This document shows positions 6,027-64,000 of a DNA stretch of 64,000 nucleotides, piece by piece; the stretch's first letter is position 1; every line of letters starts with the position of its first letter. The notes beneath the pieces were generated by a model that was given only the letters and a program-made list of their open reading frames with translations, was not told the DNA's origin and did no database searches. Source of the DNA: Adineta vaga (taxonomy: Eukaryota > Animalia > Rotifera); assembly GCA_021613535.1 (NCBI GenBank), contig CP075493.1, forward strand, positions 11,656,001 through 11,720,000, given 5' to 3'. Both the position numbers and the translations under genes were made by a program.

Positions 6027-6970
6027 TCATAGAAGTAATGCATCTGGTTCAAAATAGCGACCGAGAAGCCACATTATATCAACTGCCCAATGTATACCAT
6101 TCGTTTGATGGATATGAAATGGCTTATCAATAGATAGAAATCGAGCAAATGTATAATAAGAACGAAAAGGTGCCATAAAATATTGGGCTAAATGATGATC
6201 ATGAACATTTGCAAAACAACTTGCTAATACGTTATTGACAAATAAAGTTCCTGTCAATGTTAATGGAGCATAATAACCTTTTTTCATTTCTATGATGATA
6301 TCGATAACTGGAGAATAGTTTAATGTTTCATTGACTAAAACTACTAAATAATCTCCGATTTCAACATGTTTAGCAAAAAAATAATTTTCGTTTCCATTTG
6401 AATCGATAATTGGAATGAGATGATATTCTGTTAAACTTATCCGATGACCAGAATCTGTTGTTATTGTATAAAATAATGCTATAAGAATAAAATGATAAAA
6501 TGCAATGAACTTTTTAGTATCGTGAATTCATATACCATCTCTCGACGTTTGCTTATCTAACATCATTATCATTTCTGTTGAGATGAGTTTTGATTGATCA
6601 CTTGTGATTAATTCATCACCAGATTGAAGTTGATCGATCTGTTTATATTCTCCATTCGACAATCGAATCAATGAATCACCGGAAAAACATCGATATCTTG
6701 TATAAGATGAAGAATAATCCCAACGAACTTAAATGAAAAAAAATTTCACAATGAATTCAATCGTCAAAAAAGCATCACGAGAGATTCCACACTCAAATTT
6801 TTTTCTAGTTAGAGAATGTATCAGTCATGTGAAAATATAAAACACTTACATCCTCTATATGGATTACGATAAGGTGGATTGTAGCCGTAATATGGTGGTG
6901 CACTCTCAATATGGAATAGTATAATAAACCCAATTAATATCGTATAGAGAAGATGAGCTAGTAAATACAT
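6027..6970 (-). CDS. Hedgehog-related Hint/Hog-domain protein with signal peptide, 3 exons (6970-6850, 6727-6536, 6478-6027)
   Basis: The spliced product has CFSGDSLIRLSNGEYKQIDQLQSGD (Hint block A), MMLD, LTEYH (TxxH) and GYYAPLTLTGTLFVNNVLASCFA, then an SRR-like tail. The GT-AG introns keep the frame. Confidence 0.9.
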
Positions 6971-11508: not shown

Positions 11509-12119
11509 CGTTAACTCTTCTAGTATGTTATATTTTTAACCGCTATAAATATATATCAGCTACTACCTCAGATGATAATTTTCTCATCAGCATCTTTTTT
11601 TTTAAATATTGCAAATGAGACTTTATCCCACGATTTTCTTATTTTTTTTTGCTTCTAAAGTTATCTGGAATAGATTATGATTTGATAAATTAGTTTCCCT
11701 TACAATATCGCAGTCATTTGTTATTATGAACCACATCACAATTAGAAGCGATACTCGATCAAATATTCAATCACTCAACATGAAAAACTTCTAATCAATG
11801 TCGAAAAACGTAAAGATATGGTTCAATGCCTAATCTTCAAAAACTAACCGCAGGCTTCTGAAAACAACCAGGAAATACGTTAAAATGGACCCCCATAGAT
11901 AAATGTATTACTTGGTTTTAAAGACATTCAGCAAATACCGTAATTATTCAATAAAAAAAAGCAAATTTTCATCTGTAATAACTTGTGAATTCAAAAAATC
12001 TGTTTATAACAATACTGAAAATAGAAGTTGATATGAATTCGAACCATCGAATGGTAATAGTATTATTTATATGATTCGTCTTGACGATGATCAATGTTCA
12101 AGATATATTGAACATGTCC

Positions 12120-16479: not shown

Positions 16480-17090
16480 ATTCGATGAGAATTAAAACCG
16501 AGATATACTCTGATGAAAATCTTCGTAATAGCTATGAAATGTACGAACGTATTTATAGTATTTATACATGACTTTGAAATACGTATGGGATGTATATGGC
16601 GGGTACTTCATTTTTCTTATTTGAACGAAGATTAAAAAAAGAAAATAACTAAATTTCTAGATGATTAATGCCGAGTGTCAACATTTCGATGACATATAAT
16701 ATATTTGCCAAATACAACCATAATCTCAATGTTTTCAATAGTTTATAACAACTTTTTTTCAGATAAGACAAGTAAAAGAACTCTGTTATAACTTTCATTT
16801 ACACATTCATGTCGATGAAGAATTAGGTAATCGATGGATTAATCTTTCGTTTCTGTTCTCAAAAAGAAGTAAAATGCTATGCAAACAATTTTCAGTCGTT
16901 AAGAAAAAAGAACTCTTTCGACTCATTTTTTCATCGGATTTCATTTTTTAACATAAAACAAAATTTCACACGCACATTTCTGCACATGAAGCAGAGTCTC
17001 GTCTTCTCAACTATGTATCAAAAAGACAAAATTTCAGTTTGTCAAGAGTGAAGATTAACACAATAGTGTAACGATTAATTAGTATTTGTG

Positions 17091-18410
17091 ATGTACGGGC
17101 AACAACGTTGTCGAAAAATCGTATTATTTACTATTTTGATTATAATCTTCATTATGGCAGTAACAAAAATTCCACTACAGCAAACTTGGTCAAGAAATTA
17201 TTTATTTCTATCTAATATATCCGATTTGAATGATTGCTATTATATTGTAAAACCATTCTTTCGTTTCTTGTGTGAGAAAAATAACTCCTTTCAACCAGTT
17301 CAATTATCCACTAATTCAGATAATCATATTTGTTACCAATTATATTCAAACAAAAAAGATGCAGATCTATTCTCTCGTGTACACATCCACTTTCAACCAT
17401 TCAAAAATCGAAAAATCCTTTTCTCAGACATTGAAAATTTATCGAATTCCTGTATCAGTTGTCATCATATTCAAATCATTCAAAACAAACTCTACATTGT
17501 ACCAAGAGCAAATGCATTTAACTATCAAACACGTAGTCGTAGTGTGAAGTTGTTAATCAAACAAATGGTAGATACATTTCCCAATATTCCTGATCTCGAA
17601 CTGTTCTTTCATGTTGATGATGCCGTAGAATTACCTGATGGATTCAACGATGTGCTGTTTAATGTACCAATCTTTGCTTTTAGTAAAACTAATAGAACTA
17701 AAAGAGGTTTGAGGCCAGATGGAATAGTTCCGATGCCATGCTTTACCTTTTGGAGCTGGCCAGAGATACGTGCTGGTCGATGGACTAAAATTTCTCGATC
17801 TATTTTGAATACATCCTACAATCTAGAATATAGCAAACGTGTGCCAAAAATATTTTGGCGTGGAGTTCGAAGTTGGAAGAGAATTTGGTTTCTTAAGACG
17901 GCAAGACAATATCCAAATATTATGGATCTAGCACCGGTGAGTTGGCAGAAAGGGATCGATGGTTTAGCATACAAAGCATCGTTTTCATACAAAACATTGG
18001 AAGAACATTGTAACTATAAATATTTAGCACATCTCGAAGGTAGTTCCTATTCTTCGCGACTAAAGTATCTTCTATTGTGTGGCTCGCCTGTTGTTTATGC
18101 TCCTATTCAATATTGGGAAGAATATTGGTATCATCTTTTGAAAGATGGAGAAAATATTGTGTTTTTTGAATCAGCCGGAAATGAAGGAGCATTTAACAAG
18201 ACACTCGAGTTTTTGATGCAAAATGAAGAAAAAGCAAAAGAAATAGGTCGAAAAGGTCAGCAATTAGTACAAGATTACTTAAATGAACATGCAGTGAGTT
18301 GTTATTGGTGGAAACTACTGAAAGAATATGCTAAACTACTAGGATATAAACCAAGTTTACATCGCGATGCTATTTATATTGATGATTTTCTTCTTGGAGT
18401 TTATGCTTAA
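17091..18410 (+). CDS. Glycosyltransferase family 90 (CAP10/POGLUT-like), type II membrane, copy 1
   Basis: N-terminal TM, PDLELFFHVDD, PCFTFWSWPE, FWRG, LEEHCNYKYLAHLEGSSYSSRLKYLLLCGS and AKEIGRKGQ. Confidence 0.9.
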   Translation: MYGQQRCRKIVLFTILIIIFIMAVTKIPLQQTWSRNYLFLSNISDLNDCYYIVKPFFRFLCEKNNSFQPVQLSTNSDNHICYQLYSNKKDADLFSRVHIHFQPFKNRKILFSDIENLSNSCISCHHIQIIQNKLYIVPRANAFNYQTRSRSVKLLIKQMVDTFPNIPDLELFFHVDDAVELPDGFNDVLFNVPIFAFSKTNRTKRGLRPDGIVPMPCFTFWSWPEIRAGRWTKISRSILNTSYNLEYSKRVPKIFWRGVRSWKRIWFLKTARQYPNIMDLAPVSWQKGIDGLAYKASFSYKTLEEHCNYKYLAHLEGSSYSSRLKYLLLCGSPVVYAPIQYWEEYWYHLLKDGENIVFFESAGNEGAFNKTLEFLMQNEEKAKEIGRKGQQLVQDYLNEHAVSCYWWKLLKEYAKLLGYKPSLHRDAIYIDDFLLGVYA

Positions 18411-18730
18411 TTAAAATGGTTCATCAGAACATATACAGATATTCAACTTATTCACATTTACACTTTCCATAAGCTTCAGAGTAATCGTTTTTTGGTGTTC
18501 TTATGAAAGATAGAATAATATGGAGACAATTTTCAATCATTGTAAAAAATTCATTTTTTCTCTTTGTCTTCTGATCATTTAATATTTTCTGCACGCGAAA
18601 AGAAATAAAAACTCGGCAATTATAGTTTTCTTTTTCGTTCCGATATTTTCAGTTAGCAATGGTAACTTATATCGATATATCTATTTACTGTTTTCTAGAG
18701 TAATCATAGGTTGAATGATGTAGTGAACAA

Positions 18731-20065
18731 ATGAAATTTATCATGTATAATTGTCAACATCGTCGAAGTTTATTATTTCTCATCCTTTTACTTCTAGTTT
18801 TCATTATTATCGTGACAAAAAGTCCATCTCAACAAAACTGGTCATCCGTTATAAATAATTTATTTTCAATGAACGACTCGAAATCTAGTGATTGCCATTC
18901 TATTATGAAATCATCTTTCAGTTTTCTATGTGAGAAATACTCTTTAAAATCAATTCAATTGTACAATGATTCCAATGATCATATTTGTTACCAATTATAT
19001 TCAAACAAAAAAGATGCAGATCTATTCTCGCGTGTACACATCCACTTTCAACCATTCAAAAACCGAAAAATCCTTTTCTCAGACATTGAAAACTTATCGA
19101 ATTCCTGTATCAGTTGTCATCATATTCAAATCATTCAAAACAAACTCTACATTGTACCAAGAGCAAATGCATTTAACTATCAAACACGTAGTCGTAGTGT
19201 GAAGTTGTTAATCAAACAAATGGTAGAGACATTTCCCAATATTCCTGACCTTGATATATTTTTTAACGTTCAAGATATGGTCGATCTACCTGATGGACTA
19301 AATAATATACTTTTCAACGTACCAACATTCGCTTTTGCGAAGACCAACAAAGTAAAAGTTGGTTTGAGATCAGATGGAATAGTTCCGATGCCATGTTTTA
19401 CCTTGTGGAGCTGGCCAGAAACTCGTGCTGGTCGATGGACAGAAAAATCGCAGTCCATTTTGAATGCAGCGCAGAAAATATCATATAAACAACGAAGATC
19501 AAAATTATTTTGGCGTGGAGTATGGAATTGGAAACGAATATGGTATATTGATATAGCAAAACAATATCCACATACTATGGATATAAAAGATGTGAGTTGG
19601 AATGCAAGTGTAGATCGTTTTGCTTATGCAGCGTCAAATACATATATGACACTGGAAGAACATTGTAACTATAAATATTTAGCACATCTCGAAGGTAGTT
19701 CCTATTCTTCGCGACTGAAATATCTATTGCTGTGTGGTTCGCCTGTTTTGTATAATCCGGTACAATATTGGGAAGAATATTGGTATCATCTTTTGAGAGA
19801 TGGAGAGAATATTGTCGTTTTCGAGAAAGCTCGAGACGAAGCAGCGCTTAACAAGATGATTGATTATCTATTGCAAAATGAAAATAAAATGAAACGAATA
19901 GGTCGAAAAGGTCAACAGCTAGTACAAGATTACTTAAATGAACATGCAGTGAGTTGTTATTGGTGGAAATTAACTCATGAATATGGTAAATTACTCGGAT
20001 ACAAACCAACTTTACATCGAGATGCTGTTTATATCGACGATTTTCTTCTTGGAACGTTACTTTAG
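18731..20065 (+). CDS. Glycosyltransferase family 90 (CAP10/POGLUT-like), tandem copy 2
   Basis: Same motifs as copy 1; a clear tandem paralogue. Confidence 0.9.
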   Translation: MKFIMYNCQHRRSLLFLILLLLVFIIIVTKSPSQQNWSSVINNLFSMNDSKSSDCHSIMKSSFSFLCEKYSLKSIQLYNDSNDHICYQLYSNKKDADLFSRVHIHFQPFKNRKILFSDIENLSNSCISCHHIQIIQNKLYIVPRANAFNYQTRSRSVKLLIKQMVETFPNIPDLDIFFNVQDMVDLPDGLNNILFNVPTFAFAKTNKVKVGLRSDGIVPMPCFTLWSWPETRAGRWTEKSQSILNAAQKISYKQRRSKLFWRGVWNWKRIWYIDIAKQYPHTMDIKDVSWNASVDRFAYAASNTYMTLEEHCNYKYLAHLEGSSYSSRLKYLLLCGSPVLYNPVQYWEEYWYHLLRDGENIVVFEKARDEAALNKMIDYLLQNENKMKRIGRKGQQLVQDYLNEHAVSCYWWKLTHEYGKLLGYKPTLHRDAVYIDDFLLGTLL

Positions 20066-23324: not shown

Positions 23325-23606
23325 ATGGAACAGTAGAGCGTTATGTCATTTGTTTCTTTAAAGAAAATTTTTCAAAAAGAAAAATCTGACCGAATGATTG
23401 TTATAGTTAAAATGACGTTTTCGGGAGAAAAAACAACAGGACGGGAAATAACTTACGAAAATATTTATTTAGACATGGTGCAAGAAAAACCGTTCGTTCT
23501 CTTTCTTTTTTTACCTGTTGTGATTTTTTTCTAACGTGTTCCCTTCTTCTTAGCATATAAATACTTGATACACATATTTTTTTCGCATTATTTCAGTCAT
23601 TCAAAA

Positions 23607-26173
23607 ATGGCCACAAGAGGTAGCGGTAATAAAGTGTCTTCGACCAAAGAAAAAAAGAACAATCATCATCGAGACGAAGCAAATTTGTCCGACGATGATA
23701 ATGATGGACAAAAAGCTAACTATGAGAGTACAAAGTCAAAATCATCGAGAAGATCATCGGTTCCAACATCTACAAAGGAACATGTTAACGATCCTCATTT
23801 GGAAAGAACATTAGATCGACCACGTACCATCCAATTCCAATTACCTTTACGATCATTCGACTCTGTTTCTTCTTTATCTTCTAAATCATCAAAACATTCT
23901 TATACTGATTCATTATCCGGATCTTCAGCTTCATCATCCTCATCTTCATTATTTGATTCGTCTTCAGAAAACGATTCGGACTCGGAAACTTCTCCTAAGT
24001 CACATACACGTTCAAGATCTCAATCATCAAACGAAGATTTCGACGTTAAACATTGGTTCGAAAACGATATGATGGAAATGAAACATGATCTTAGAGATTT
24101 TTGTAAAAGAAAACCTTTGATCTTATATCATGAATGGAATGCTAAAGTATGTCGTGATCAATTTCGTGCTCTTAAACCGAATGATTCATCGTACGATAAA
24201 CGCCGTCGATTACTTAACGTGACAGTGATGGCTACAACTGATCGTGCGATTGTCAAAGGAAAATATACAGTTAATAATGAAACAGTTGAATTCAATTTTC
24301 CTGGCCGTATGAAAACTACTCTCTATGAACATCTATTAAAGTCACCTCAAGATGATAATATACAAGCAACATTTAAAACAACTGATGTGAATGTTGTGAA
24401 CGATGATTGTGTGAATGTATGTGATCGATTGATGACTAAAGGCTACGATCCTGTGATGCTTAATATGGCTAATTCGTCAACTCCAGGAGGTGGATTTCGT
24501 ACTGGTGCATCTGCACAAGAAGAAGATCTATTCCGTCGATCAAACTACTCTCGTAGTCTTGATATTAATTTCCCTGAAACAGCTGAAAAAAACCATAAGC
24601 GTTCATATTGTAAGTCATCCAATGAACCCGAGCCATATCCAACTAATGTATCAATGTATCCATTGGAAGACTTTGATGCTATCTATACGTCAGGTCTCTG
24701 TTTTTTTCGGCTTGATAAAGATAACGGTTATGCTTTCATGGATGAACCTCTATACGATGTTTGTTGTATAGCAATAGCTGCATCTCGAGATCCTCCAGTT
24801 AAAGATGGACAACTTTCATCAGATATAGCTGAAATAATGCGAAAGAAAGTGGAAACAATTTTTGCCATTGCACACAAGAATAAACATGATTCTTTGGTAT
24901 TGTCAGCATTTGGATGTGGTGCATTTCATAATCCACCTGAGCATGTGGCAAACATATTTAAGTCTGTCATTGAACAATACGCTGGTGTATTTCGTCGAAT
25001 CGATTTTGCGATTGTTGGCGCATCGGATAACTCACATGGAAACTATTCTATATTCAAGAAAGTACTCGATGGACTCAATGTAAAAGCACCTGAAAGAGCT
25101 AAAAGAGATAATAGTACACATGAAATGCAAAAGGATCAAAATTCATCTCGACATATGAAAAAAAGAAATGAATGTCTTTATGGAATTGAATGTCGTCTAC
25201 AATATTCAGAAAAAAATTCAACCCAACATAATACTAAATATACTCATCCATGCCGGTGGTCAGAGCTTTGTACAAATCAAGACAAAGAACCACATTTAAC
25301 TCATGCAAATCATAGAGCTCATCAATGTCGCAATCGTGATGCATGCAAAGATATCATCGATCCTGTTCATAGAGCAAAGTATCGGCATGAAAACTTGCCT
25401 GATTTCCTGGTACCATGCAAGTATCAGCAGAAATGTCGAGATTCAACATGGACTCATCGAGTGAAATATTCACATGGTGAATTGGCCGGAGGTAGGCTTC
25501 GATTGAATTGATCAAGTTTTTCTTGAAATTGCATCGATTATTTACGCATAGATGATAATAAGCATGGAACAACACGGTCAAAATCTGGTATGAATACTAA
25601 GTTTTGATTTTATCGTCAATTTCTGTCCTATACTAACTATTTCAGATCAATCGAAATCAAAATCATCGACTAATGCGAATTATATAACTGGCATGGATCA
25701 TTATGAACCAGATAATCGATCTAGTGACCATTCATATTCAAGAACTAAAGAAAGATCTACAAATAATTCAGAGTCAAAGTCATCTGGTTCTCACCATCAT
25801 GATTCGACCTCACGACGACAATCTTCCGGTATTTTAGTTTTCTTATTTTGAAGAGAAATATATCATTTTTCTTGATTCTTATCATCATTCTTAGATACTA
25901 ATTCACGAACAAAAGGAGAAGATGATCATTACCGCAAAAATCATTCCGACAAGAACAACAGTGGTACTAGTTTATTTAGCTTTGTTTGAAAAATATTCAG
26001 CTTTCTTCCATTTTTCAGATTCAACAAATTCTGGTAAAGTATCGTCAACATCAAAACACAATCGAGAGTTGACATCCATTGATAAACGATCGCATAAAAC
26101 AGAATGCAAATATGGATCACAGTGTTACAACCATGATCAGGATCATCGTTCCAAATATAAACATGAAAACTGA
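23607..26173 (+). CDS. Microbial-type PARG (TIGR02452/DUF2263 macrodomain) with Ser-rich N-terminus and five PBZ-like zinc fingers, 5 exons
   Basis: LNMANSSTPGGGFRTGASAQEEDLFRRS (GGG-x7-QEE), LVLSAFGCGAFHNPP and FRRIDFAI. C-x5-C...H-x3-Y-x-H repeats follow. Four phase-1 GT-AG introns after 25491 lead to KTECKYGSQCYNHDQDHRSKYKHEN*. Confidence 0.88.
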
Positions 26174-44895: not shown

Positions 44896-47800
44896 TCAAT
44901 TGTTATTAAAACGTTCACGTATTCGTCGAACTGTTCGTTCGATGACATCATTGAATTCCTTCTTATATATTTTTGATGGCAATACAAAGACGATGAATGT
45001 TGCCATTGATGGTAAAAATGAAATTAAATAAGCAAGTAGAAATAACCAAGAATTTCGAGGTGATTTCATACAACCAGTGATAAATGAAATAATTAAACGT
45101 GGTAAAGCTAATAGGATCAATGCACATGATGTAATCAGATGATGTGTATGCTGTTTGAATTGTAGTTGAAAATGTTGTTTAAATGTTAATTTTGGTTGAA
45201 TAGTTGCACGAGAACGAGCCATGGATATAATAATAAGAAAAATTGAAATAATATTGATTGTAAATGGTGTAAGAAAATGAAAGAGATTAATAAATGAATT
45301 ATAAATATTTATTGAAGATGGATATTGAATTAAACACCATGTTCGTTTTTCATCAATATCAATATCATCTTCTAATTTGCGATAAAGTGGAATATGAATA
45401 TGTGTTAATATTGTGAATAAAATAATACTAAAACTAATCCATTTAGCTAATTGTTTACTTTTTGATTTATTAAATTTAACACTTTTTATGACAGTAAATA
45501 CTCGTTCGATTGAAACACTTCCATAAAGCCAATCATTTGACGTTAATGTTACTTGAATAAACATATCTAAGAATTGACAACTAAAATTCAACCATGATCG
45601 ATTTGTTAGAAGATTCATTTGAGAAAAGATCAATTGCACACATTTCATAACTAAGAAACTTATTAAAATGATGGAAATCCATGAAGAAATAAATAAATAT
45701 ATACCACAACCAACCGCTTGTGTTTTCTTTCTATAAAATGTCAAAACTGATAGAATTACATTAATTAAACCACCGATAAACATTAAAACGATAATGACAA
45801 TAGTTAATTTAACAATAAATGGTTGTTTAGATAATGAAAGATTTGGTTTAATATGATAACCAAGAATATAATCGAGTGATAAAACAAAACCTTTTGTTGA
45901 AAATTGACATTTGGCTCCATAATAACAATCATCACAAGAACATATTCGTGAACTAGGACATGTAACATTATCTTGAAAACATTGACCGCCATTTTCACAA
46001 GGATTTTCATCTTGACAATCATATTTAATTGTACGATTAAATGTAAAACAATTCGAAAAACGATCTTGATCACATATACACATGTAATTTTCATCATAGA
46101 AACACATTACTTTGAAATTTTGTCGACATAAATATGGATAATATTTAATACGATGATATCTAGAATACGATCGTAGAGTTTGATTAAATAATTCATTTAT
46201 TGACAAACATCGTTGATTTATTCTTAATTGATTTTGAATATGTTCTGATTCAATAAATTTTTCTCTTAATACGACTACATAATACATTTTATTGATTAAT
46301 TCAACAAGAAGAATATGATACGATTGTGCAACCAATAGAGTTATGGAATCTTCATTGTATTTCACCTTTCTCAATATTGTTGTTCGTTGATGTGCTCTTG
46401 TTTCAAATGCAGTAATATAATGAAAATAGATCATTTTTGTTTCTCCAATAATTTCGTCAGTTAATTCAATATCAATACGACTTTTGTTGTATTCACATTT
46501 TTCTCCATGAAAATTTTCTTTGCATAAACATATAAATTGTTTCATATTAAAACGATCATCCAATGGTACAGAAATTCCATTATTTTCACATGTATGATTG
46601 ACGAGATGTTTTAAATAACATTTTGAACCAAATTTATCAATCGGACAGACACATATCGACGATGTGTAACAGAAGGAATCGGATGAACAGGAACAATGAT
46701 GTGAAGTTTCACATTGGGGACCTGAATAACCTTGATTACATTGACAAAAATATGATGTATTTGTATTAATATATTGTACACATTGACCATGGTGACCACA
46801 AAAGAGTGAACAAGATTTCGATTGTGGATTATCTGGAACAAATAATTGAGTTGCAATACGATTAACTGGTAAGAATTGAAAAGGAATTGGTAAATACCAA
46901 CTTGCCCAATAAGTTAACGTAATTTTATCATAAATATCAATATGAATTGAATAATTCGCTGAAGAATTTTTCGGTTGATCAGGATATAGAAGATATAGAT
47001 TAAATTTTTTGTCACAATCTTGTTTTGATATATAGATCATTTGTTCATAATACGATGATATTTTTCTTTGTTCATTCATAAGAAAAATCATGATTTGAAA
47101 TACAGGTGTTGAAAATTTATTCATACGATAGATCAATTGAAATGTTAAACTTACACGTTGATTTTGCCATTGACATCGTTCACCAAAATAACTTGGTGGA
47201 CAAAAACATTTTATTGTTTTATTAATGCTAAATCGAATAGATATTCCTCGATTACAATACCAAGATGTTGATGGTTCTAGGAAAATATACGGTACTTTTG
47301 GATTTGGGACAACTAGTCGAAGGGTATTGTTGTTGTTATTATGGGTCGTATTAATTGCTGGATAATTACTTAATTTTGATGTTTGTAGAAAACGTTTCTT
47401 TATAGGTTCTTCAGAAAATTTCGATACTAAAACGCATATATCTGTTGGAAAGAAATTATTCTCAACATAAGTTACTATCCTAAAAGCTGGTGGTAGTTGT
47501 GTTTGAAGTAAACAAACGCCGTTATCCTCTATAGGCAATGATGATTCATGAGATAGTAAATGTTTCGATGTAATACATTTTGTTTTATTCCAGAGGAAAT
47601 AATTTGTAGAATTTATATATGTATTACTAATAAGAGACAGTTTACGTTCGAATGTAGATGATAATGTTGTATGCCAGTAAAATTCTTTTAATTGAGAGAA
47701 TTTTGTACAATAATGATCGCCGAATCCAATTTCTGTAACACAAATATGTTCGTTGAGTGAACATTTGCTGTCGGGACAATTTAGTTCATCAATACCATTT

Positions 47801-49589
47801 AGACAATTCCAAACATGATTACATCGAACATATGGAGTATCACATGGCCATTGATTACAATGGGTTTCATCAGTATCATTCGAAAAATTTGTTCTTTTTA
47901 TATCATTATATTCATCACAGAATAAAGCAAAGGGAACATTTCCTTTCTGAATATCTCGTTCATATATAGTTAATTCATCTTCACCATTTTGACAATCATA
48001 ACGTTTATCTTCGAGAGCAATGAATGATAAACATTTATTTGTTTCAGATGAACAATGAAACCTCCATGTATCATTTAGTTGACATGCAGGATATAATTCA
48101 TCTTCGCGAAAATAACAATCAATCTCGCCATCGGCTAGGCGATGTTTTGAAATACATTTGAATGATTTCGGACAATGAAATAAAGACGAATCAGAACATG
48201 TCAGTTCTGATCCAATCGTTCTGCAACGTAAAATGAGATCTTTAAACATTTCAAATACAATAGAATGCCAAACGTCGATAGTTCCTTCGATTAATCGATT
48301 TCTTCGACAACAACTGAAACGATTATTAATTTGAAAGTCTTCTATACAGAATAACAGTGCAGGACATTGACTTGCATTAAAACAAAGTAAATCTGGCATA
48401 AGATCAATCTCAAAATCAGCAATTGATCGATTATTGAAATAAACAAACTGAAAAAAGCCAAAAAAAGTAGGATATTCAGGCCAAGCAAACCATTGTAATG
48501 AGCAATTTGTAGTAAAATTTATACAAAGATTATTTGTATCTGTTAATGAGACACGAAGTAGTCTATTGAGACGAAGTAAACAATAGACCATTTGTCGACA
48601 GTTCATATCGAGATATAATCTGTTGTCACAAACATCTCCGAGGACATGTAAAGTCCTCGATAATTATAAGGAAGTAATGCAAAATGAGGCAAGAATTGTT
48701 CAATATATGAACCATCACTACAAGAAAAATAATATCGATATCGATTTTGATATTCTTCACAACGAAATGTTGAAATTTCAAGACAATGAAATGGCTGCAG
48801 TGCATCCATAAATACAGACTTATATGTTTCATCTGAACCATCGAGACAATCTAAACTTGTTGCTCCATCATAAACATACGCAATAGGAATACATTGTCCA
48901 CCGAAATGACAACGATATTCATCATTTGCGCATTCATTCAGTTCTAATACTGGACAGAATTCTTCATCTTCACCGTTGAAACAATCTAGTTTTCCATCAC
49001 AAATTTCACGCCAATCGAGGCATACAGTTGACACACCACGATAACAATTAGTTACAAATGGATAACATGTACCAGCTAGAAACTCCTTTGTAAACGGCGG
49101 CGGTAGCCGATAATGAAACAGCGCATGAACAAGATCACTAAACATTAGTGTAGTATTATATAATAATTGATATTGACACGTAGAACCAAACCAAGGTGAT
49201 GAACAATTATAGAATATTTTACTCGAATTTTTACCATTGATTTCATAATCTTCAGCTATATCAACTGGCACAAACCATTCAAGTAATCGTGCACTTGTTA
49301 TATTCTTTCGATATAATTCAGTAAAAGTGACTTGATTTTCAATGTTTCCATGTAATGTCGATACTAAGAGTTTCTCTTCATCCATATCATGTTGCCGACA
49401 ATATGGAATTAGATTATAATTAGTTAGACGAGACACACCTTGATCTTCTGTATAATCTGATATATCAGTATACAAACAATCGTACTTGGTATGCGTTTCA
49501 TATCGATTATTCAGTTGATATAAAATATATCGAGCATCGACGAAGAAAAACAATAGAAAAAATATCACTAGTTGCGTGGTTGAGGACAT
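44896..49589 (-). CDS. LDLa + EGF repeat class A GPCR with one frameshift at ~48607
   Basis: Signal peptide, LDLa repeats (CLDWREICDGKLDC..GEDE), EGF repeats (CFCPPSYFGERCQ) and seven TM segments with SIERV. The two ORFs overlap by 4 nt. Confidence 0.88.
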
Positions 49590-49992
49590 TTTTTATTAAA
49601 TTTAATGAGAAACTAATGTTTTTATATATACTAAAAGAAAATATGATGAACATATGTATTGGCCAAGTTTTGATAGAAAGGATAGATTTTAAAGGATTTA
49701 CGCACATTCATTTACAAAACTAATCTTTTTTTGCTGCCATTTATTACAAAGACGGAAGCTTGCTTTCCTCTCATATGTATATGCAGCAAAAAATTATATT
49801 ACATCTAGCATATGGTTAAACAGATTTGATAAGAAAATATGATAATTTCAATATCGAAGAACAATTTGAAATCATGCAAAACAAGTTCTTTCATACTGTT
49901 GTGTAATTACATAGATATCTATATAAAAGATATCGAGTGGACATAAACATTGCTAGTATTTATTCTGATTATCTACAACGAAGAAAACTTTC

Positions 49993-51540: not shown

Positions 51541-53745
51541 TTAGTACATTTCTGTAGTATTCATAGTGCCGCCGTTTTGACCGCCAGTAACTAATACTTT
51601 TCCATTTGTTAAAATAGACTGTGTATATCCTTCTCGTCAAGAATTCATACTGTCGGTAATGGTCCAAACTCCTGTTGACGGATCATATAATTCAGCACTA
51701 CTGAGAAGAGACGTGTTACTGAATCCTCCAGTAACTAAAACTTTTCCGTCGAATAAGACAGATGCTATGTGCTGAAATCGTTCAGTATTCATGCTGCCAG
51801 TAGATGTCCACGTTCCAGATAATGGATCGTACAATTCAGCGCTGCTATATCTAACGTAACCATCTGTTCCACCAGCAACTAGTACTTTTCCGTTGGATAA
51901 AATAGCTGCTGTGTGTAAATATCGTTTGTCATTCATACTACCAGTGACTGTCCAAGTTTCTGTTGATGGATCAAACAGCTCAGCACTATTAAGACCATAA
52001 CCTCCAACAACTAAAACGTTTCCATTTGCTAGCATGCTTGTTGTATGCCATAGTCGACGATCATTCATGTTGTCTATTGCCGTCCAGTTGCCCGTTGATG
52101 GATCGTACAGTTCAGGATTGCTTCTATAACGATTATTCAGTCAACCAGTAGCTAAAACTTTTCCATTTGATAAAACTGTTGTAAGGAACCAAGTTCGTGG
52201 AGTAATCATGCTTCCAGTAATTGTCCAGACTTCTGTTATCGGATCATACAATTCAGTGCTACTTTTCTCACTTGCTCCGTCACTTCCACCAGCAACTAAC
52301 ACTTTTCCATTTAGGAGTAAAGATGCTGAGTGCTGCATTCGTACAGTACTGGTGTTACCAGTAATTGTCCAAATTCCTGTTGATGGATCATACAACTCAG
52401 CGCTGTCAAAATTACCACTACTATCGGATCCACCAACAACCAGCACTTTCCCGTTTGTTAATACAGTTGCTGTGTGCCATGCATGTTTCTTATTCATTTT
52501 AGCAGCACTAAACCAGCCTAAATTTTACATATTACAATATTTAGACTGAAAGGCAATGTACTAAGAATATCAATGCTATCTCGAATTTTGAAAATTGACA
52601 GAACTCGACTAATACTGAATTTGTCATATAGCATGCAGAAATGGAATTTCTGGCAAAGATTAGACTTGTATAATTCTGTAGCTTTCAAAAATGAGAATAA
52701 GATGAATTCTCAAGAAATCTCTTTTTATCTCAAACACTATAGCTTCTCAATCAATCTAATCGTATGTGAATTAGAAATAGTGGTATTTCCACAAACTATT
52801 GCATAAGCATACTAAACAGTTAACTGTTTTAGCATTTTATAGTTTGGATATCTATAAAAAGCATATATTTCTCCTATTCTAAATAACTTCATCACATTCA
52901 AAAACTAATTACAAATTTTTAAGTCTTCGTAAAAAGGAATGTAGAGAACTCGAGCCCCACGATGTCGACAGTTTTGATCGGAATCAACATTTTCTCATCA
53001 ATCATTTTAATATTAGTCGGCTCATCTCAGAGTTGCCAAAAGAATATTGATCTGTATGGTACTGAGACTACTTCCTTTTTCGCGATGTTGCACATTCCGG
53101 AATCAGTTCCAACCAATTCCTGGAATTCCCTTACCGCTCTAATTACCGAATAAACTGGGTACCGACCGAATTCCGGCAAAGCGTGGGAAATGGTTCCTAG
53201 GCTGAAACTGATTCCGGAATGTTCAACATCGCGGAATAGGATGAGTGCTTCGTTAGTCACGAATTTATATAAAATTGTTTATACCTGATTTACAGAAGTT
53301 TGACCATGACAATGGTAAGCATATAGCTTTCTGTAAACAACATGAATTGATTATACATATAGATGTATTTAACGCACAAGTATTTGATAGATTGTCACAT
53401 GGTTCCACAATATCACATAAAACACCAGGTGCACAATAACTGGTATTATTGAGTGTACGATATTCGAAACATGGTGTTAATGAAGTACGACAACTACTAT
53501 TATCACTTAAGCCTACTCGACATTGTAATAAAGAACAGTTTGATAGGAGATTTCGTGTTGAATGGGATGCTACCGACAACGAAAACTGAACAGTGTCATT
53601 ATTTTGATTACAATAATAGTTCGTTGGTTCTGTGGTTTGACCTACGAATTAAGTATATCATGGTGAAATCAAATAAAAATCTCAACTACGCACTGTTTGT
53701 CGATGGCAGCAACGTACTAAAAAGCAAGCTGATTAGAATCTGCAT
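51541..53745 (-). pseudogene. Signal peptide + Cys-rich domain + Kelch (galactose oxidase-type) repeats, with two in-frame TGA codons (52143-52141, 51639-51637)
   Basis: Repeats of M...R..HTA..L.NGKVLV.GG....SAELYDPSTG.W run in one frame across both TGAs. Upstream exons are MQILISLLF.. and the Cys-rich 53579-53287 segment. Confidence 0.8.
53073..53241. mobile_element. Intronic MITE-like foldback element
   Basis: 53081-53108 (cgcgatgttgcacattccggaatcagtt) is a 27/28 reverse complement of 53206-53233, and the arms extend imperfectly. GC-richer than the flanks. No TSD identified. Confidence 0.6.
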
Positions 53746-54628: not shown

Positions 54629-56139
54629 ATGATTATTTTAATTGAAAGTGTCATTTTGCTTTCCATTGTTTTATTGCTAATCTATTATTTCTATTGGAAA
54701 ACGAATGAAGATTTATCGATACCGTATGCTACATATGGAAGTTATCCGATCGTTGGACATTTATTTGGATTTATACGCGATCGAACTAAATTATTAATTG
54801 AGTGTCGTCAACGGTATGGTTCCTTTTTTCGAATAAAACTAGTGAATCAACGTTTTATTATGATATCATCACATATCGATTGGATGAAGATTGTTAAAAA
54901 TTCAGCATTTCAATTCATGGGTATTGAATTGGGAATAAAAATATTTGGATTTTCTTCTATTATTCAACGTAAGCATTAAGCTACTTGTAATAGTTTGGAA
55001 CGTATTGCTTTATTGTAGATCATTCGGAACTTGATGTGGAAACGCATCGTCTGTATATTCAACATTTAAAAAATCGAGATGGTTTACATCCAATGGTTGT
55101 TGAATTCGTTCGTCGAATGCGTAATTTGATGAAAACTGGCAAAGAATCATTTGAAAACAATCATTCTACGTCCAAATGGACGTCAACTGGTTTACTTGAA
55201 TTAAGTCATCGTATGCTTTTTCAACCATCAACTCTGGCTTTATTTGGGGATATTAATACATCTGTTTTAGAAAAACATTTTCGTTTATTTGACGATAAAT
55301 TTCATTATTTTTATCTTCCATTACCTCAATGGTTTTATTCTGGTTTTCTATCGAAAGAATCAAATGCACGTTCTCAGTTGAGCCAGTCATGGCAATATAA
55401 TCTTGATCCAACAAATGCATCTATGTTTTATCAAGACCGTTTGGAACTCTATGCGAATCATTCCGAATGGCTTTCAGATGAAGAAAGTGGAAAGTATAAA
55501 ACAGCTTTTTTTTGGGCATCACTTGGTAATACAATTCCAGGTGTATTTTGGTCACTATTCTATATTTTACGAGATCCTAAAGCTCTCGTAACTATTCAAG
55601 AAGAAATTAATACGCATCTACCATTTATACCCTTAGATAATACTGATTCTCAATCGGCATATTGGACACCAGAACAATTAGATTCATGTATTTATCTAGA
55701 AAGTGCAATTAATGAAACTATTCGATTAGTAGGCGCAATTTTTATGACAAGAAAGTGTTGCCGAGACACACAAATTACCTTAGAAGATGGACATAAGATT
55801 AACATCAAAGCAGGTGAAGATCTTGCATGGTATGGTGGTGCAAGTCATATCGATGAAAATCTCTTTCCACATGCAACTCAGTTTATTTTTGATCGATTTT
55901 TAAATAAAAAAGTCGAAACTGTACCTGGTTATATGCCATTTGGTGGTGGGAAAAGTATTTGTCCTGGCCGATTTTTTGTACGATACGAAATCAAAACATG
56001 TGTCGCTATGCTCCTACGTTATATGGAATATAAACTTGATGATATCCAAACAATACCAAATCAAAAACTATCTCGTATTGGTGTTGGAATTGCACCACCT
56101 AATCATGATATACCCATTATGTATCGATATAAAATATAA
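54629..56139 (+). CDS. Cytochrome P450, CYP7/CYP8 clan-like, 2 exons (intron 54969-55018)
   Basis: N-terminal TM, P..GH, I-helix WASLGNTIP, ETIR, FIFDRF and heme motif FGGGKSICPGRFF. Confidence 0.9.
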
Positions 56140-56251: not shown

Positions 56252-59200
56252 TTATTTTGAATAAATTATCAATCGCACAAGTATTATAATAATTGACTTA
56301 TAAAATACAAAATCTTTCCTCATTGCTATTGTTGATCCGAGATTGTTTGCATAATTTTTCTGTATTATTGTTGTTTCTTCGGTTGATGTGTTTAGATTTA
56401 ATTGAATAGTATGGTTGAAATAATTCTGTACTGTGGTTGATCGTGTACCTTTCCGAAGTTTTTTATTTTTCGTCATGTTGATATACGAATAAGTTTGTAA
56501 TTGATTGAGTATTGTAGTTAATTCTAAAGTTGTTTGTAAATGATCTTTTTGTACTAACATTGTATAGTCTTTCCATTCATGTAGATTTCTTTGGAAATTT
56601 TCATGTAATTCTTTCATGGTTGAATCATTTGTTATTAGAATATCATAAATACATTGTTGTTGTTTTATGTGAGAAAGAATATTTTGACAATTGTATTCGG
56701 CTTGAATTAATTTTTGCGTATTTTGATATTGTTGAAATAATTCTTTGTGAAAGATTGGACGATAATGAAGATTTTGTTTTTTATGAAAATTTTCTCCAGG
56801 TATGTAGTAGAAAAGTGTAGTTTCTGGAGTTATTCGCCATGATTCACCAAAATTAAAATAATATTGTTCACTTAAATCATTGTTTTTATTTTCATTCATA
56901 TTTCCGAGGAGACCTTGAAGATGTTCTTGATAATATTGTGGTAAAATGGATATAATGTTCAAAAAATCATATTGTTCTCGAATTTTCACTAAGAATTGAA
57001 TGTTATTTACATAGGTAATTGTGTATGTCGTTTGATTTGTTTGGGTAATGGATATTTGATGATTATCTAATCGAATCGTACGACTTGTCGCTAATAAAAT
57101 CTTATGCATATCAAGATCAATGTCTTCGATAGCGGTACTTGGATTGAAAAATATGTCTGTATCGATAGATCGATCATTGAGACGAATATCGATTAGTTTT
57201 AGTTCGGGAAATAATTCAAATTGAACTTTAGAATAGTTCCCATTTTTGATGACGAATGCAACAATAGCTGTTGCTTGATTTTCTTGTACGTTGGATTGGA
57301 TTGGTTTTGTACGAATTTGAATTTCTAATGATGTGGCATTTGACAGCGGATGTGTACGAAGTAAAACATATTCACCACAACCATTGAATGTATATTCAAA
57401 ATCATCTAGAGTAGTAAAATGTGGATCACCAGCAGCGCCACTTGGTACAAAGAGTGGAACATTTTCACATTCAAATGTTGGTCGTTGTTTATGGTAGGTC
57501 ATACAGGATGTGTGTTCCGTTTTTGTTAAGTTTTGGACGTTCACAACAAGTGTAAAATGGTAAATGATCATAAAGTATATGTTTAATCCGTTGAATAATT
57601 GAACTATCGGAACTTGCTTCTAATTCCAGACCACCGGTACCTAATGTAGGATCAGTAATAATCAAACCATCTGAATTATAACAACATTTTACACCTGGAC
57701 CTTCTGATTCAAATGAACGTCGATAACAATGTGAGACATGATTATCGAATGTACATGCGACCAATCGATGATTGTTACATGATGGATCACTTTTGAAATT
57801 ATGAAATGTTGATGGAAAACGATTAAAACCAGTTGCTGGTACGCGACATGGACACGAAGGAACTTTTGTTTGATATGTTGCTGGTGATGGCATATGTACA
57901 AGTTTCATTTGCCATTTTTCACAAAAAGCTGCTGTTTGTTTAACAACAGTTATTGGCCAATTGACTGTGCGATAGAGCCATATCAGTGGAGTTGGTATCG
58001 TGATTACATCCGTTAATAGATTGAAATTTATTAGTAATAATGTTATATGTATGTCATCATGAGTTGCATATTTAAAAATGTTAGAATATTCAATAGTTAC
58101 GGTCATTAGCGACGATAAATTAACAGATGAGTAAAGTGTGCGTTGACGAAGATCGATATAAATCAATTCATTGGTATCATGCGCAAAGATGGTTTCATAA
58201 TAAAATAATTCAATATTAAAGATATATTTTTTTGTTATAAAATTATCTGTAAAATTAAATATGATTGAATCATTTTGAGCCATTTCAATAAATGAATTTT
58301 TTACATTCGAATTTTGAACAAGCAGTTCTGAATTATCTTCTGGAATTTCAATAAAAAAATGTGTTATTCCCATCAGAACTTTTTCCATAGTGAAGAGTTG
58401 AATTTCTATTTTAGGACCATTATAAATCATTGGCATTATACACTTAATAGAAAACAATGTTACATTACAATCATCTCGTATTGTTTGATCAATTTTAATT
58501 TGATAATTTCTTTCTTTAAAACAAATTCCAAATAGTTGTATTTCATAGCCGCCAGTCGGTGAACCACGAAATGGTACTATTTGTAAACCATCTGCTGTGT
58601 GACATTTCGTATCTGTAATATTGGCACCAATGGAAAATACAAATCGACCTGGATATTGAATATTAGAGTCCTTAACGAGTTCGGTCACTTGTAATGTAAA
58701 CGATTTATCAATAAGAAAATAATTTTTCATGTCACCAGCATTGAAACCAGCTTGAGCATGAACAGAGCCCGAAACTGAACTAGACGTCCATTGTAATTGA
58801 CCGTAGTTAAAAATAGAAAATGAATTGATCCCGTTTGTCATTACGATCGCTTGAAACGTATTACGCAAAGTGGATGGTAGTCCATATCCAGGCACTTCAT
58901 ACCATGTAGCAACGAATCCCCACAGCAGTGGCTGTATAACCATATCAGAAAAAACGCCTTCTATAATATACATAAGTTCATGAAGTGTTGATTTATCGAC
59001 TATTTCTCGATAGAAAATGTTACTATTATTGTCATTTGCTGTTATTACATCAGCCCAAAACGGTGCAACACAAACAATATTATTAATAGGAAAATTTACC
59101 GGTGTAAAATTAATAAATTCATCATCGTGTTTGCCAAATAATATCATACCATTAGTTTGAATTTTAATTTCGTCGTACATATGATCAAAGAATGGAAAAC

Positions 59201-59372
59201 GTACTGGAATCTGTATAGATTCGGATATCCTATCATCATCACGTTCGAATGTGATATCACCATGATCAGGTCCGAATGGAAAAAGTTTTTCGTGATATAC
59301 GTCTCCTGCAATACTATGAGTACCAATAATCATTATACAATAAAACACAGTTACATTGATATGTTGTCTCAT
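56252..59372 (-). CDS. NIDO-IPT-AMOP-VWD (mesh/SUSD2-like) surface protein with one frameshift at ~57543
   Basis: LFPFGP..GD, APFWADV, NTFQA and AQAGFNAGD (NIDO); PSCPC..CCY (AMOP); GDPHFTTLD and GLLGN (VWD); hydrophobic C-terminus. Confidence 0.88.
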
Positions 59373-59864
59373 TTTTAACAGAGTCGAAAAAAAAATATAT
59401 AGGTGTACATATCACCAAAACAGTCTTATATATACGTAAGCAAATAGAAAGCTTATTATCTTCTTTTCATCATAAAGATGAAAATATGATTAATGAGCTA
59501 GGTTATTTAGATATTTTTCTCAATGATTAATTATGTATATATTCTATTAGACCAAAAATATTGTACTGATATATAGTATCACCATTTGTTCTGTTGTCAT
59601 CAACAAGCTATAATATATCATAGCCCACGATTCTGACGTTATATTCTAACAATTGTCTTTCTCTTCGTTGCATTCTTACCATAATGAGATATCTACTATG
59701 CATTTGTACGATAACGAATGCTCTTGCAATCCTACAGAATAAAATGTGTGAATATTCTGCAATTAAAAAAAATGAGAAAGATCAATAATGATGATGAAAG
59801 ATGTAAGTATGAAAAAAAATGAACTGTTTGTGTGTAAACTGAATAAATATAACATTCATATCTT

Positions 59865-60818
59865 TCAAACATTTGTAGCAATTATACTGAGCATACCATA
59901 AATACTCAATGTCTCACGAACTTTTTCGACATGAAAAAGCGTCTTTTTGTTTTTATGATCATTTGTAGTTACTTGCAACATTTCAATCTTTTCCGGTGTG
60001 ATTTTAGGGAAAAGAATTTGATACAATCCATCGGCAGTTCGAATAACAAAATATTGTTTTGGTTTCTTAATAATCACATCATTATTCGATTGACAAACAA
60101 GATTTTGAAGTATATCTAATTTTTCTAATTCATTAATTCCCACATATGCAGCAAGATAAATCACCTGACATTCATTTAAAATTGTTCGAACGTTATTAGG
60201 TAATGGATGTTCACTAATATCTTGTGTAATGAAATGCATACGTTGAAAAAGATCTGGAGATAATATTTGTTCACTAAGAACAGATGCTAATTGATTTGCT
60301 TCTTCACACATATCAATATTATAAATATCGACGCAAGGTCCATGATCATTAAGAATAATCAAAGAAGATGTAGGAATTGGACCTGATCCAATAAAAGCAA
60401 TTTTTGTCACTAAAAAATCAGTTTCTGCATTGTTATTTGTTAAATTTTTAGCAAGATAAACATCAAGTTCTTGAAGCATGTTTATTTCACATTGAATTAA
60501 TTCTTCGTAACCTTTACGATGTTTGAAATGTTCACTGAAATTATGATTTCGATCAACAGCACAGATCTTTGCTGCTCGTATTTCACCGTAGAGACCATAG
60601 AGAGCAAATAAACGACGAAGATTTTCACATGATATTTGTAATTCTGTATCTGTCTGTAACATGTGATCCACTGAGGATGAATTCATATCTTTTGACGACG
60701 AACACAATGTAATAAGTTCATCGAATAAATCAACAATTTGCGGAGAAAATTCAGTTATATCAAGTTGAGAAAGTTCAGTATTTAATTGAATAAGTCGATC
60801 ACGCATAGAATTGTTCAT
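59865..60818 (-). CDS. Nicotianamine synthase-like (NAS family) SAM-dependent aminocarboxypropyltransferase
   Basis: YEELIQCE, KIAFIGSGPIPTSSL, NIDM..AN..A, VIYLAAYVG..EK..IL and VIRTADGLYQILFP follow the NAS motif order. Intronless. Confidence 0.85.
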   Translation of the reverse strand: MNNSMRDRLIQLNTELSQLDITEFSPQIVDLFDELITLCSSSKDMNSSSVDHMLQTDTELQISCENLRRLFALYGLYGEIRAAKICAVDRNHNFSEHFKHRKGYEELIQCEINMLQELDVYLAKNLTNNNAETDFLVTKIAFIGSGPIPTSSLIILNDHGPCVDIYNIDMCEEANQLASVLSEQILSPDLFQRMHFITQDISEHPLPNNVRTILNECQVIYLAAYVGINELEKLDILQNLVCQSNNDVIIKKPKQYFVIRTADGLYQILFPKITPEKIEMLQVTTNDHKNKKTLFHVEKVRETLSIYGMLSIIATNV

Positions 60819-61047
60819 TGTTCTTTGAAAATAAATGCAGTCCAAGTAGTACGTTGCAAAAGATGACTTGCAGTTTCAGAGTAGATTCAAAGTTGTATAT
60901 ATACATAAAAATACTTTATCATTCTGTATGATAACAACATTTTTTTCTTTTTTTTTCTGTTGATATTATGATACAACAAAAAACATGTAGATTATATGGA
61001 AAGATATATTCTTTCACAATTATATTAGAATCTGTAGTTGAAATTAT

Positions 61048-62135
61048 TTATTCAAAGAAAGTTTTTTTAGCAGGAAATGTCGAATATCGTCTACGAATGG
61101 CATCATTACGTCTTAATGTTAAGACATGAATTAATGCTCTGATTTCACCAATACGATGGCCAACAAAATGATCATAGGAACTGCCTTCATGTGGTTGTTG
61201 AAGAGCAAGTTCTTCCAATTCTCTTTTTAAATTTTCAATAAATTCGTTGCAATCATTGATTATGTCTTCTATAAAAGAAAAAGGAACAAACAAAATATTT
61301 CATTGAATATATCTTTTTTTCTGATTCGTTTACGTACCATCGGACATTGCATACAGACACACATGTTTATATTCATGTAATCCATTGATAGACAATGGTT
61401 GTTGTTGACCTTTACTTTGTCGAATGACACCTTTTACTATTTTTTCAAACATATCAGGAATACTAACATCTGCTAGAACAATATTTTCACATAAATGTTT
61501 GGCAAATAGATTATCTTGAGTTTTCTTTCGCTTATTATCAATAAATTGATGGGCAGCACAAGAAAATTGAATGAATGTTTCATCAGGTACAGTCATTGTC
61601 TGGAGACCTTTGTTCTGCTCACCAGCTAAAACAAAACGTAAACAGTAGTTTCTATAAACTATAAACAATGTTTATTCTACGTACGATTTGATGGCGATTC
61701 ATTTTTGTAAAAATATCGTTTATTACAATCAAGAATAAATATATTCACGTAAGATTGATTTTTGTCTGTTATTTTTGATAATGCGCTTGTAACATTAGCA
61801 CCTATATCTTGAACATCCATATCTTTACCTATTTTCTCATCATCGGTAGGTATCATATAATTAGTTCCATCAACCTGTCGACATTGACCAGAAAAATAAA
61901 CTAAAACTAGATCTCCATCGGTAATTTCTTCAGCGAAAGTTGCAATAGTGTTCAGTATTTCTTTATCAACATTTAAACGAGTAGTTACTTTGAAATTAAT
62001 TGTCTCGAGTAAACCACTTAGTTCCCTAGCATTTTTAACCGCATGTTCTAGCCGATTCTCTTTCAGTTTATAGGTACCGTTACCAATAATGAGTGCTCGT
62101 TTCTTATGAGATGAAGAATTATCGGCACTTGGCAT
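61048..62135 (-). CDS. Peptidase C14 caspase-like protein, predicted inactive, 3 exons
   Basis: KRALIIGN..Y, YFSGQC (His replaced by Gln), NYMIP.D, ILDCNK (catalytic Cys lost) and the p10-like NLFAKHL..QQP. Confidence 0.85.
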
Positions 62136-62748
62136 ATTTTTATTTATATCTAAAATACAACCTCCGACAAGCAATACCTTCGAACTTAACAAAATTATTC
62201 TGCGACATTTCATTAAAAAAAAGTTGCATCGTCTGCATACAAAATCAGGGGTAATATTTCAACACATTTAACTTTATTTTTCATCGAAAAAAAATTCCAA
62301 CTAAACAAGATTTCGTAAGTGATGTGTTGTGATGCTTTGTATGTTGGAAAAAATTAAAATGCATTTGTCGTTAAAAAAAACAGACGAATTCATACAAACT
62401 TAAAAACAACAACAAAGATTATGTTTACCGAGCACAAAAAAGAGAAAGTGAGTAACTTTTCTTGCTTCCAACCGATTTTTACCCTAAACGACATTTTTTT
62501 ATGCTAAATCATGCTATACATACATACGTGATTTTTAATATTACCTTGCGTTCAGCGCCAAAAAGGTATCCAACGATGAAACACTGTGTAAACATCCTCT
62601 CTAGGTCTATTGAAACCTGTTGAGTGAAATTTTACATTTTCGAGGAAGTATTGTATTTACATTCGAAAAATACAATGCGAATATAAAATAAAGTGTCAGT
62701 ACATGATCAATCTTTAGATTTAGCTAATATTTCAGATATAGAGCAGAA

Positions 62749-64000
62749 ATGGCACGTTCTAATGACGATTCATCACAACATCGAAAGTTAGCATTAGTCA
62801 TTGGAAATGGCGATTATAGTCTACGAGAAAATCGATTAGATTATTCAAGAAAAAATGCTCAAAGTATTGCCAATTTATTAGAACAACTAGGATTCGATGT
62901 GAAACTTGCCCATGATTTACCTAAACATGAATTGACCACATGTATTATTGATTTTTCTAAAAAAATCGAAGATGGTGATTTAGTCGTATTCTATTTCTGT
63001 GGTCATGCATGTTATAGTAACGGCGATAACTATCTCATACCCGTCTGTGATAATCAGATAGTTGCACAAGACGATATGAAGGACTTTGCTAATAAATACG
63101 AACATATGGTATCACGTATACTAGAAAAAAATGAATCATATGTAACTATTCTAATTTTTGACTGTGCAAAATCATATTTAACAAAGAGTACAAGAAAATC
63201 AAAATGTAAGTATAAGATCATTAAATGCTTTGAAAAGATACAAGTCATATTAATTTAGCATTAAGCCAATGTGATGGATTAGTGGAGACAAAACCATCTG
63301 CTGGAACAATAGTGCAATTTGCCCGTTCTACTAATCAACATGCAAAAGACAATAATGATACAGGCTCGTACAATTTATATTTTAGACATTTATTAAATAG
63401 CATTGCTGAAGAAAATGTTGATATTGCGGATGCTTTTCAACGTATTGACAATGCTGTACGCCAGGAAAGTAAAAATACACAAAAACCTGTATCTATGAAT
63501 GGTTTACGCAAAAACCAATTGATTTGCCTCAATCTTGTTGTCAAACCTGTTGAGAGTAAGTTGATATTAATATGTACAAAAGAATTGCATCTTTCTGTCG
63601 CTCTTACTCTCTCATCAATCTATCGGTTTTGTAATTTATAGAATGGGATGAAATCAAACCAAGTGAGATGGCATCCGTAAAGAAAAAACAAACGGAGATG
63701 AGGGCGTGTTATGATAATTTTCCAAGTATTGATGATCTTACCAAAAAAAACAAACCAAGTATTGCAAGAGCAGAGAAATTGACACAACAGATTTTATCAC
63801 AACCACCATCGGGAGATGCCGGGCAAAGGGATACTGCATGCCATGTTCTACACAAACTCTTCGAACAGGAAAATCAAGAATGTTTATTCTTTGATTCCAC
63901 TCAAAACATGACACTTCATGATGCATCAGGAAGTTTGGCTGATTTTAGTTCTCAAGAAAAACCATTTGTTTTAAAATTAAACAATGTCGATGGACTCGGT
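62749..64000 (+). CDS. Peptidase C14 caspase-like protein with additional C-terminal domain; runs off the window end
   Basis: RKLALVIGN.DY, YFCGHA, NYLIP, FDCAK and a p10 exon. A third exon from 63642 stays open to 64000. Confidence 0.85.

Follow-up and report, generated by a model that had tools for sequence, protein, structure and literature searches.

A nicotianamine synthase-family gene with an altered active site in the bdelloid rotifer Adineta vaga

The bdelloid rotifer Adineta vaga carries a genuine nicotianamine synthase (NAS)-family gene, which we confirmed in a 64,000-nucleotide stretch of contig CP075493.1 (assembly GCA_021613535.1, positions 11,656,001 to 11,720,000 of the forward strand), here called the window. 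Adineta adds to the whitefly a second, separate animal lineage that carries NAS, and its copies form three subgroups with altered conserved positions. The window copy is a member of Pfam family PF03059 that differs from nicotianamine-producing NAS, since it lacks the glutamate present at position 73 of the plant enzyme AtNAS1.

The window gene is an intact member of the NAS family

The NAS-family coding sequence occupies 59865..60818 on the minus strand, where an uninterrupted ORF runs from the ATG at 60818 to the stop at 59865 and encodes 317 aa in a single exon, with the core domain only. The protein scored above the curated PF03059 cut-off of 27.1 bits across the domain (104.4 bits, E 9e-30, profile positions 10-257 of 276), and an NCBIfam scan of the ORF gave one MAG6450 match only, below cut-off. 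In a feature search of the Atlas, NAS clusters ranked top (0.95-0.97). An AlphaFold model of the 317-aa protein, made with 14 homologues as input, had a mean pLDDT of 87 and a pTM of 0.88, and in this predicted structure an N-terminal helical domain is combined with a Rossmann-type SAM domain as in MtNAS (Methanothermobacter thermonicotianamine synthase) and CntL. In a Foldseek search with the model, MtNAS led (3FPE/3FPG/3FPJ; E about 5e-11; query TM 0.65-0.68), followed by CntL (E about 2e-8), and all of the best ten PDB matches were chains of these two enzymes. Searches of the PDB with the single sequence or a 7-row bdelloid profile retrieved zero chains; a profile from 12 non-bdelloid proteins did reach both MtNAS and CntL.

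The NAS-like identity proposed by an earlier, sequence-only reading of this DNA is thus borne out by profile and fold alike. The outcome that reading had set against itself, an unrelated methyltransferase as the best profile match, did not appear, PF03059 being the sole Pfam match. We also ruled out an ordinary methyltransferase on structural grounds, as matches to such enzymes began at E 1.5e-5, at least three orders of magnitude weaker than the best ones.

None of the runs is on record as RNA; four short-read runs (X8, X13, X15 and X17) were counted as RNA-like because their contigs skip GT-AG introns of neighbouring genes. In X8, a single 1018-nt contig covers 59803-60819 without a joint, and X8 splices the introns of the neighbours, so the NAS gene is both transcribed and intronless; together with the absence of internal stop codons, this upholds its earlier description as intact and intronless. 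RNA-like contigs cover 59803..60873 (minus strand) in all, with X13 extending up to 60873, although the true ends and strand of the transcript are not readable from contigs. A TATA-like TATATAT at 60897..60903 (minus strand), 85 nt upstream of the ATG and some 30 nt past the furthest 5' end reached by an RNA-like contig, gives a weak hint of a promoter element in DNA that is AT-rich. A scan with a metal-response-element pattern revealed no such element near the NAS gene, with 14 pattern matches against 15.7 expected. Spaceflight RNA-seq of A. vaga includes at least three PF03059 genes with baseMean values of 3.8, 8.3 and 15.8 and an empty HGT cell (three supplement rows of PMC12220480). Expression of NAS looks low from these genes (FUN_000411/000519/001644), taken as a group and not assigned to individual copies such as that of the window.

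The gene lies among spliced and animal-type genes

The upstream neighbour is a spliced, three-exon gene with a Peptidase_C14 (caspase) domain (61025..62151, minus strand; introns 61269-61337 and 61626-61684). Downstream lie ORFs with NIDO/AMOP and VWD domains, which are animal-type extracellular domains (56252..59372, minus strand), and a P450 gene in the window carries an intron at 54969-55018. We treat both neighbours as genomic context, with no shown pathway link to the NAS gene. These findings match the intron-containing or animal-type flanks described previously.

The NAS stretch, or part of it, is contained in at least 20 runs from 9 studies, 19 of the runs under one organism label. In three DNA-like runs, contig depth over the NAS gene was similar to that of the flanks; none of the contigs listed, all from short-read runs, reaches from the NAS coding sequence into an exon of a neighbour. 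As for the read-level linkage suggested earlier as a check, the gene is placed with its flanks by the assembly, by the similar depth and by orthologues in three species. Contamination or misassembly, a reading that the missing spanning contig might favour, is a negligible prospect in view of these orthologues, the number of runs, the flank-like depth and a host-like base composition (ORF GC 0.31; GC3 0.17, within the 0.15-0.26 range of seven other window ORFs).

Distribution and origin of the rotifer NAS genes

Bdelloids are known for carrying very many foreign genes. A search with the single window sequence found six homologues, and the four named ones were all from Adineta (A. ricciae at 77% and 45% identity to the window protein, A. 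steineri at 62% and A. vaga I4U23_005177 at 60%). A profile search returned 30 proteins, 14 of them at 336 bits or above (seven named Adineta) and the next best at 79 bits. Each of three Adineta species has orthologues in several alleles, and A. vaga has two further paralogues. A metagenome scan with the bdelloid alignment gave 9 loci, and the four examined were plant-like and offered no synteny from other bdelloids. In a published orthogroup table, with its species codes assigned to genera, the NAS orthogroup has 2-4 copies in all 6 Adineta assemblies, none in 2 Didymodactylos assemblies and one copy in a single assembly out of 25 for Rotaria (Nowell 2024, PMC11258130, as far as the table was available), in agreement with the absence of any Rotaria or Didymodactylos name among the 30 proteins of the profile search.

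The main tree comprised 78 rows, namely 13 bdelloid-type rows (6 so called by tree position only) and 65 others, chosen as a subset of the proteins found and of 89 loci, and was computed under LG+G4 from 274 columns. The bdelloid sequences formed one clade (support 100/100, stem 0.79) with three subgroups. In subgroup A the window copy is sister to an A. ricciae protein and is joined by A. vaga 5177 and A. steineri; subgroup B contains A. ricciae and A. steineri, and subgroup C A. vaga I4U23_005032. The sister of the whole clade was the Logan protein P0042 (97/90), and a weak next node (89/90) brought in plants, the chytrid Physocladia and P0037. A mixture-model tree of 57 rows, without P0042 and long branches, gave the same picture (SH-aLRT 89). 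The closest rows of plant and fungal NAS share only 26-28% identity with the window protein. P0042/P0142, a 272-aa canonical NAS, may represent the donor lineage; the protein search found no relative of P0042 above 40% identity.

A single clade of bdelloids and the 7 angiosperm rows was rejected (p-AU 0.00078), which separates the rotifer gene from the plant-to-whitefly transfer. The whitefly Bemisia tabaci gene BtNAS is likewise an animal NAS acquired by horizontal transfer and duplicated (parts of PMC9599486 and PMC12454661), and it is angiosperm-derived, with 63% identity to its best plant match (PMC9599486). The bdelloid clade, in contrast, lies outside plants in a tree from which BtNAS itself is absent, does not nest within angiosperm NAS as a whitefly-type gene would, and is far more diverged. 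Phylogeny, which the sequence-only reading had proposed as the route to the donor, thus yielded one bdelloid clade outside the angiosperms but left placements with Dikarya (p-AU 0.17), the Actinoplanes group (0.26) and methanogens (0.16) all unrejected.

From these sequence comparisons, a single horizontal transfer followed by duplication is the likely history of the gene. The foreign origin suggested for it earlier holds up, because the searches revealed no other named animals and the range within bdelloids is narrow. The Adineta copies also display the features of horizontally acquired bdelloid genes: their closest relatives are non-metazoan, they recur in related rotifers, their composition is like that of the host, they have spliced or animal-type genes beside them, and they are expressed.

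As a separate observation, NAS homologues with the E73-type signature were present in several genomes of Patescibacteria (Saccharibacteria, Parcubacteria and Peribacteria; loci L020, L040, L045, L053-L055, L057, L058, L060, L064 and L078, the residue being checked in aligned rows only), which was unexpected in such reduced genomes.

The active site keeps the catalytic residues and loses a glutamate

Locus L081 corresponds to AtNAS1 numbering at 10 of 10 positions checked and was used to map published mutagenesis onto the alignment. The catalytic pair is present: Glu79 (codon 60582..60584, minus strand) is equivalent to the catalytic E81 of MtNAS and E77 of AtNAS1, and Tyr104 (codon 60507..60509, minus strand) to the catalytic Y107 and Y106, and neither residue varies in any of the 78 tree rows. 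The FIGSGPxP SAM-binding loop noted from the sequence reads FIGSGPIP, a glycine-rich sequence motif at residues 142-149 (60372..60395, minus strand) with the GxGP signature at G144-S-G-P147. All eight positions that are invariant across the 65 non-bdelloid rows (E77, Y106, E113, G132, G134, P135, P137 and R233 in AtNAS1 numbering) are kept. The window protein therefore has the PF03059 core, catalytic equivalents, SAM loop, K213 and R233 in common with plant and fungal NAS (EC 2.5.1.43; AtNAS1, Neurospora), and like the fungal and moss enzymes it has no inhibitory C-terminal extension.

The Glu at AtNAS1 position 73, which is needed for nicotianamine, is replaced by Gly in the window copy (Gly75, codon 60594..60596, minus strand) and in the three named proteins closest to it. 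Subgroups B and C have Glu at this position, as do 61 of the 65 non-bdelloid rows, the exceptions being three methanogen rows and one further row. MtNAS, the best structural match, also has Gly here (G77) and an aromatic residue four places earlier (Tyr73), where the window copy has Phe71 and plants have Cys69. In the excerpted text of a mutagenesis study (Seebach 2023, PMC10248798), E73Q, E77Q and Y106F each inactivate AtNAS1, AhNAS5 with E73V is inactive, and deletion of the VGMD motif abolishes activity whereas C69A does not. The VGMD-type motif reads VGIN in the window copy, with V and G kept and the remaining residues variable in fungi too.

This pattern bears on whether the window protein is a true nicotianamine synthase that uses three SAM, like the fungal and plant enzymes, which we consider unlikely. 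The catalytic pair, the SAM loop, the equivalents of K213 and R233, and the V and G of VGMD are all kept, the core-only architecture is that of active fungal and moss enzymes (PMC10248798, in part), and the weakly supported tree neighbours include a chytrid and plants. However, Gly stands exactly where substitution of the Glu kills AtNAS1 and where AhNAS5 with Val is inactive (same source), and Neurospora NAS retains both C69 and E73, the latter in common with nearly all non-bdelloid rows.

Conservation in at least 90% of the other rows was found at 27 positions. The window copy differs from the consensus at 9 of them and subgroups B and C at 5-6; the maximum in any non-bdelloid row is 7, a comparison that favours those rows, on which the positions were defined. 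The departures of the window copy include Y102H, N105G, L205Y, Y243F and N268M. Compared with the plant and fungal motifs, FPYYxNY has become FKHRKGY, AALVG has become AAYVG, LYP has become LFP, and the Asn of the C-terminal VxNS is lost. In subgroups B and C, Y102 is replaced by Asp or Glu and N268 is lost. We infer that the altered positions line the active-site chamber, and the window copy may be impaired or may be a transferase of another kind. An inactive or decaying paralogue without catalytic function is nevertheless very unlikely. The departure from the family consensus is the largest among the named rows and expression is apparently low, but three species have the gene intact, at 60-78% identity, and its substitutions recur across the subgroup, every invariant residue is kept, and 4 of 6 coding differences among those listed for run X2 are silent.

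A predicted transferase with an amino-acid starter

We see an even chance that the window protein transfers aminocarboxypropyl groups from SAM to an outside amino acid and makes a nicotianamine-like chelator, not nicotianamine, as the missing E73 glutamate would suggest. SAM would be held at the GSGP loop while Glu79 and Tyr104 take a proton from the acceptor amine, and this amine would attack the aminocarboxypropyl carbon of SAM and set MTA free, in one or two rounds, like MtNAS and CntL; the chemistry of such transfers is covered in the consulted sections of a review (PMC10491745). The starter would be an amino acid rather than self-cyclised SAM, because Phe71 and Gly75 resemble Tyr73 and Gly77 of MtNAS where plants have Cys69 and Glu73. 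MtNAS starts from glutamate and CntL from histidine (PMC10491745, same sections). The product might bind Fe, Zn or Cu, either for metal buffering or to withhold metal from fungal parasites, roles for which the family provides the precedent. Paralogues that keep the E73 equivalent appear, from their residues, to be better candidates for production of true nicotianamine.

The two enzymes that would serve as models differ from the rotifer protein in several respects. MtNAS shares about 15% identity with it by structural alignment, does not have the VG that follows AAL in the rotifer protein, and stands apart from it in the best tree, though a joint grouping was not rejected. CntL (staphylopine, pseudopaline) shares the fold and also has no Glu at the E73 position (Val in CntL), but it has no Tyr aligned to Y104. 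Furthermore, CntL works with CntM (and CntK), whereas among the 28 window ORFs scanned with Pfam we found no opine dehydrogenase, racemase, metal transporter or other metallophore partner, and no CntKLM-type opine metallophore linkage. The metallophore pathway for Fe/Zn handling or oxidative-stress protection put forward earlier would be a candidate role.

The same residues would also suit an aminocarboxypropyl transferase that has been repurposed to make a metabolite other than a chelator, for instance a defensive compound, or to tailor some other small molecule, since many conserved positions have changed while the catalytic ones are kept. A family member of A. ricciae, g27352, which carries a NAS activity annotation, is among the HGT candidates with raised expression 7 h into fungal exposure (PMC11258130, Supplementary Data 3, in part); it is the sole functional lead and bears on the chelator reading as well. 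An unrelated mollusc aminocarboxypropyl transferase serves natural-product synthesis (PMC11869996, in part). The NAS GO term had an FDR of 1.0 after correction in the fungal-exposure data and was not significant (PMC11258130), and g27352 is not placed in any bdelloid NAS subgroup, that of the window copy included. We regard such repurposing as rather unlikely, as the characterised NAS-fold enzymes in the sources drawn on here yield nicotianamine-type compounds or metallophore precursors and the 28 scanned ORFs form no biosynthetic cluster around the gene.

A second animal lineage with NAS

The whitefly has been described as the sole metazoan in possession of NAS (Dirick 2025, PMC12454661), and the text supplements of that paper contain no mention of Adineta, Rotaria or rotifers. 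No paper that discusses NAS in rotifers came up in our literature search. In the portions available, the papers on whitefly and molluscs (PMC9599486 and PMC11869996) refer to rotifers in passing only. A 2026 preprint (10.64898/2026.08.27.747422) counts Metazoa among 791 non-plant NAS, with the taxa unnamed in its accessible part, and these may include Adineta. Nicotianamine is never mentioned in the main text of Nowell 2024 (PMC11258130), and it does not occur in the abiotic-stress GO file of that study, in the searched files of the Boschetti 2012 supplements or in the main text of Moris 2024. In UniRef, proteins of A. ricciae and A. steineri already carry the name nicotianamine synthase. The earlier view that NAS is not a standard animal gene took into account neither the bdelloid host nor the animal NAS already published from the whitefly.

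The Adineta clade corrects the 'only metazoan' statement of PMC12454661, representing a second transfer into animals that was kept and multiplied. Variants with and without E73 in one genome offer a direct test of azetidine self-priming against an amino-acid starter; the timing of azetidine cyclisation is called elusive in the review cited above (PMC10491745, in part). If a chelator is made, it would be a candidate, open to testing, for a part in the antifungal defence and stress tolerance of bdelloids. A more far-reaching proposal is that three subfamilies with rebuilt active sites jointly make nicotianamine and new chelators, for antifungal metal-withholding or for iron safety during drying, which would make Adineta the first animal lineage to diversify NAS; we consider this doubtful. 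Surprise at the finding is also tempered by the fact that bdelloids commonly carry foreign genes and that UniRef and supplementary tables already bear the automatic label.

Other features of the window

Several further window genes are likely of foreign or microbial type by their Pfam matches, namely a TauD dioxygenase (2016-2720), a PF00756 esterase (10522-11535), a microbial-type PARG (23535-25511) and Kelch-repeat ORFs (51637-52497). The window also contains a Hint-module ORF at 6027-6527 and a tandem pair of glycosyltransferase family 90 ORFs at 17079-20065 (plus strand). Serial LDLa, EGF and 7TM-receptor ORFs at 44896-49592 (minus strand) probably form one GRL101-like receptor.

Two spliced Peptidase_C14-domain genes lie in divergent orientation, the upstream neighbour of the NAS gene at 61025-62213 (minus strand) and a second gene at 62749-64000 (plus strand). 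Judged by caspase motifs, the first seems to have neither the catalytic His nor the Cys (SGQC, LDCN) and the second seems to have no Cys (FDCA), and both may be inactive protease folds. The NIDO/AMOP and VWD ORFs overlap, and the DNA-like runs X1, X2 and X3 all show a 2-base insertion at 57523; a frameshift in the window assembly may split a single NIDO-AMOP-VWD protein at 56252-59372 (minus strand).
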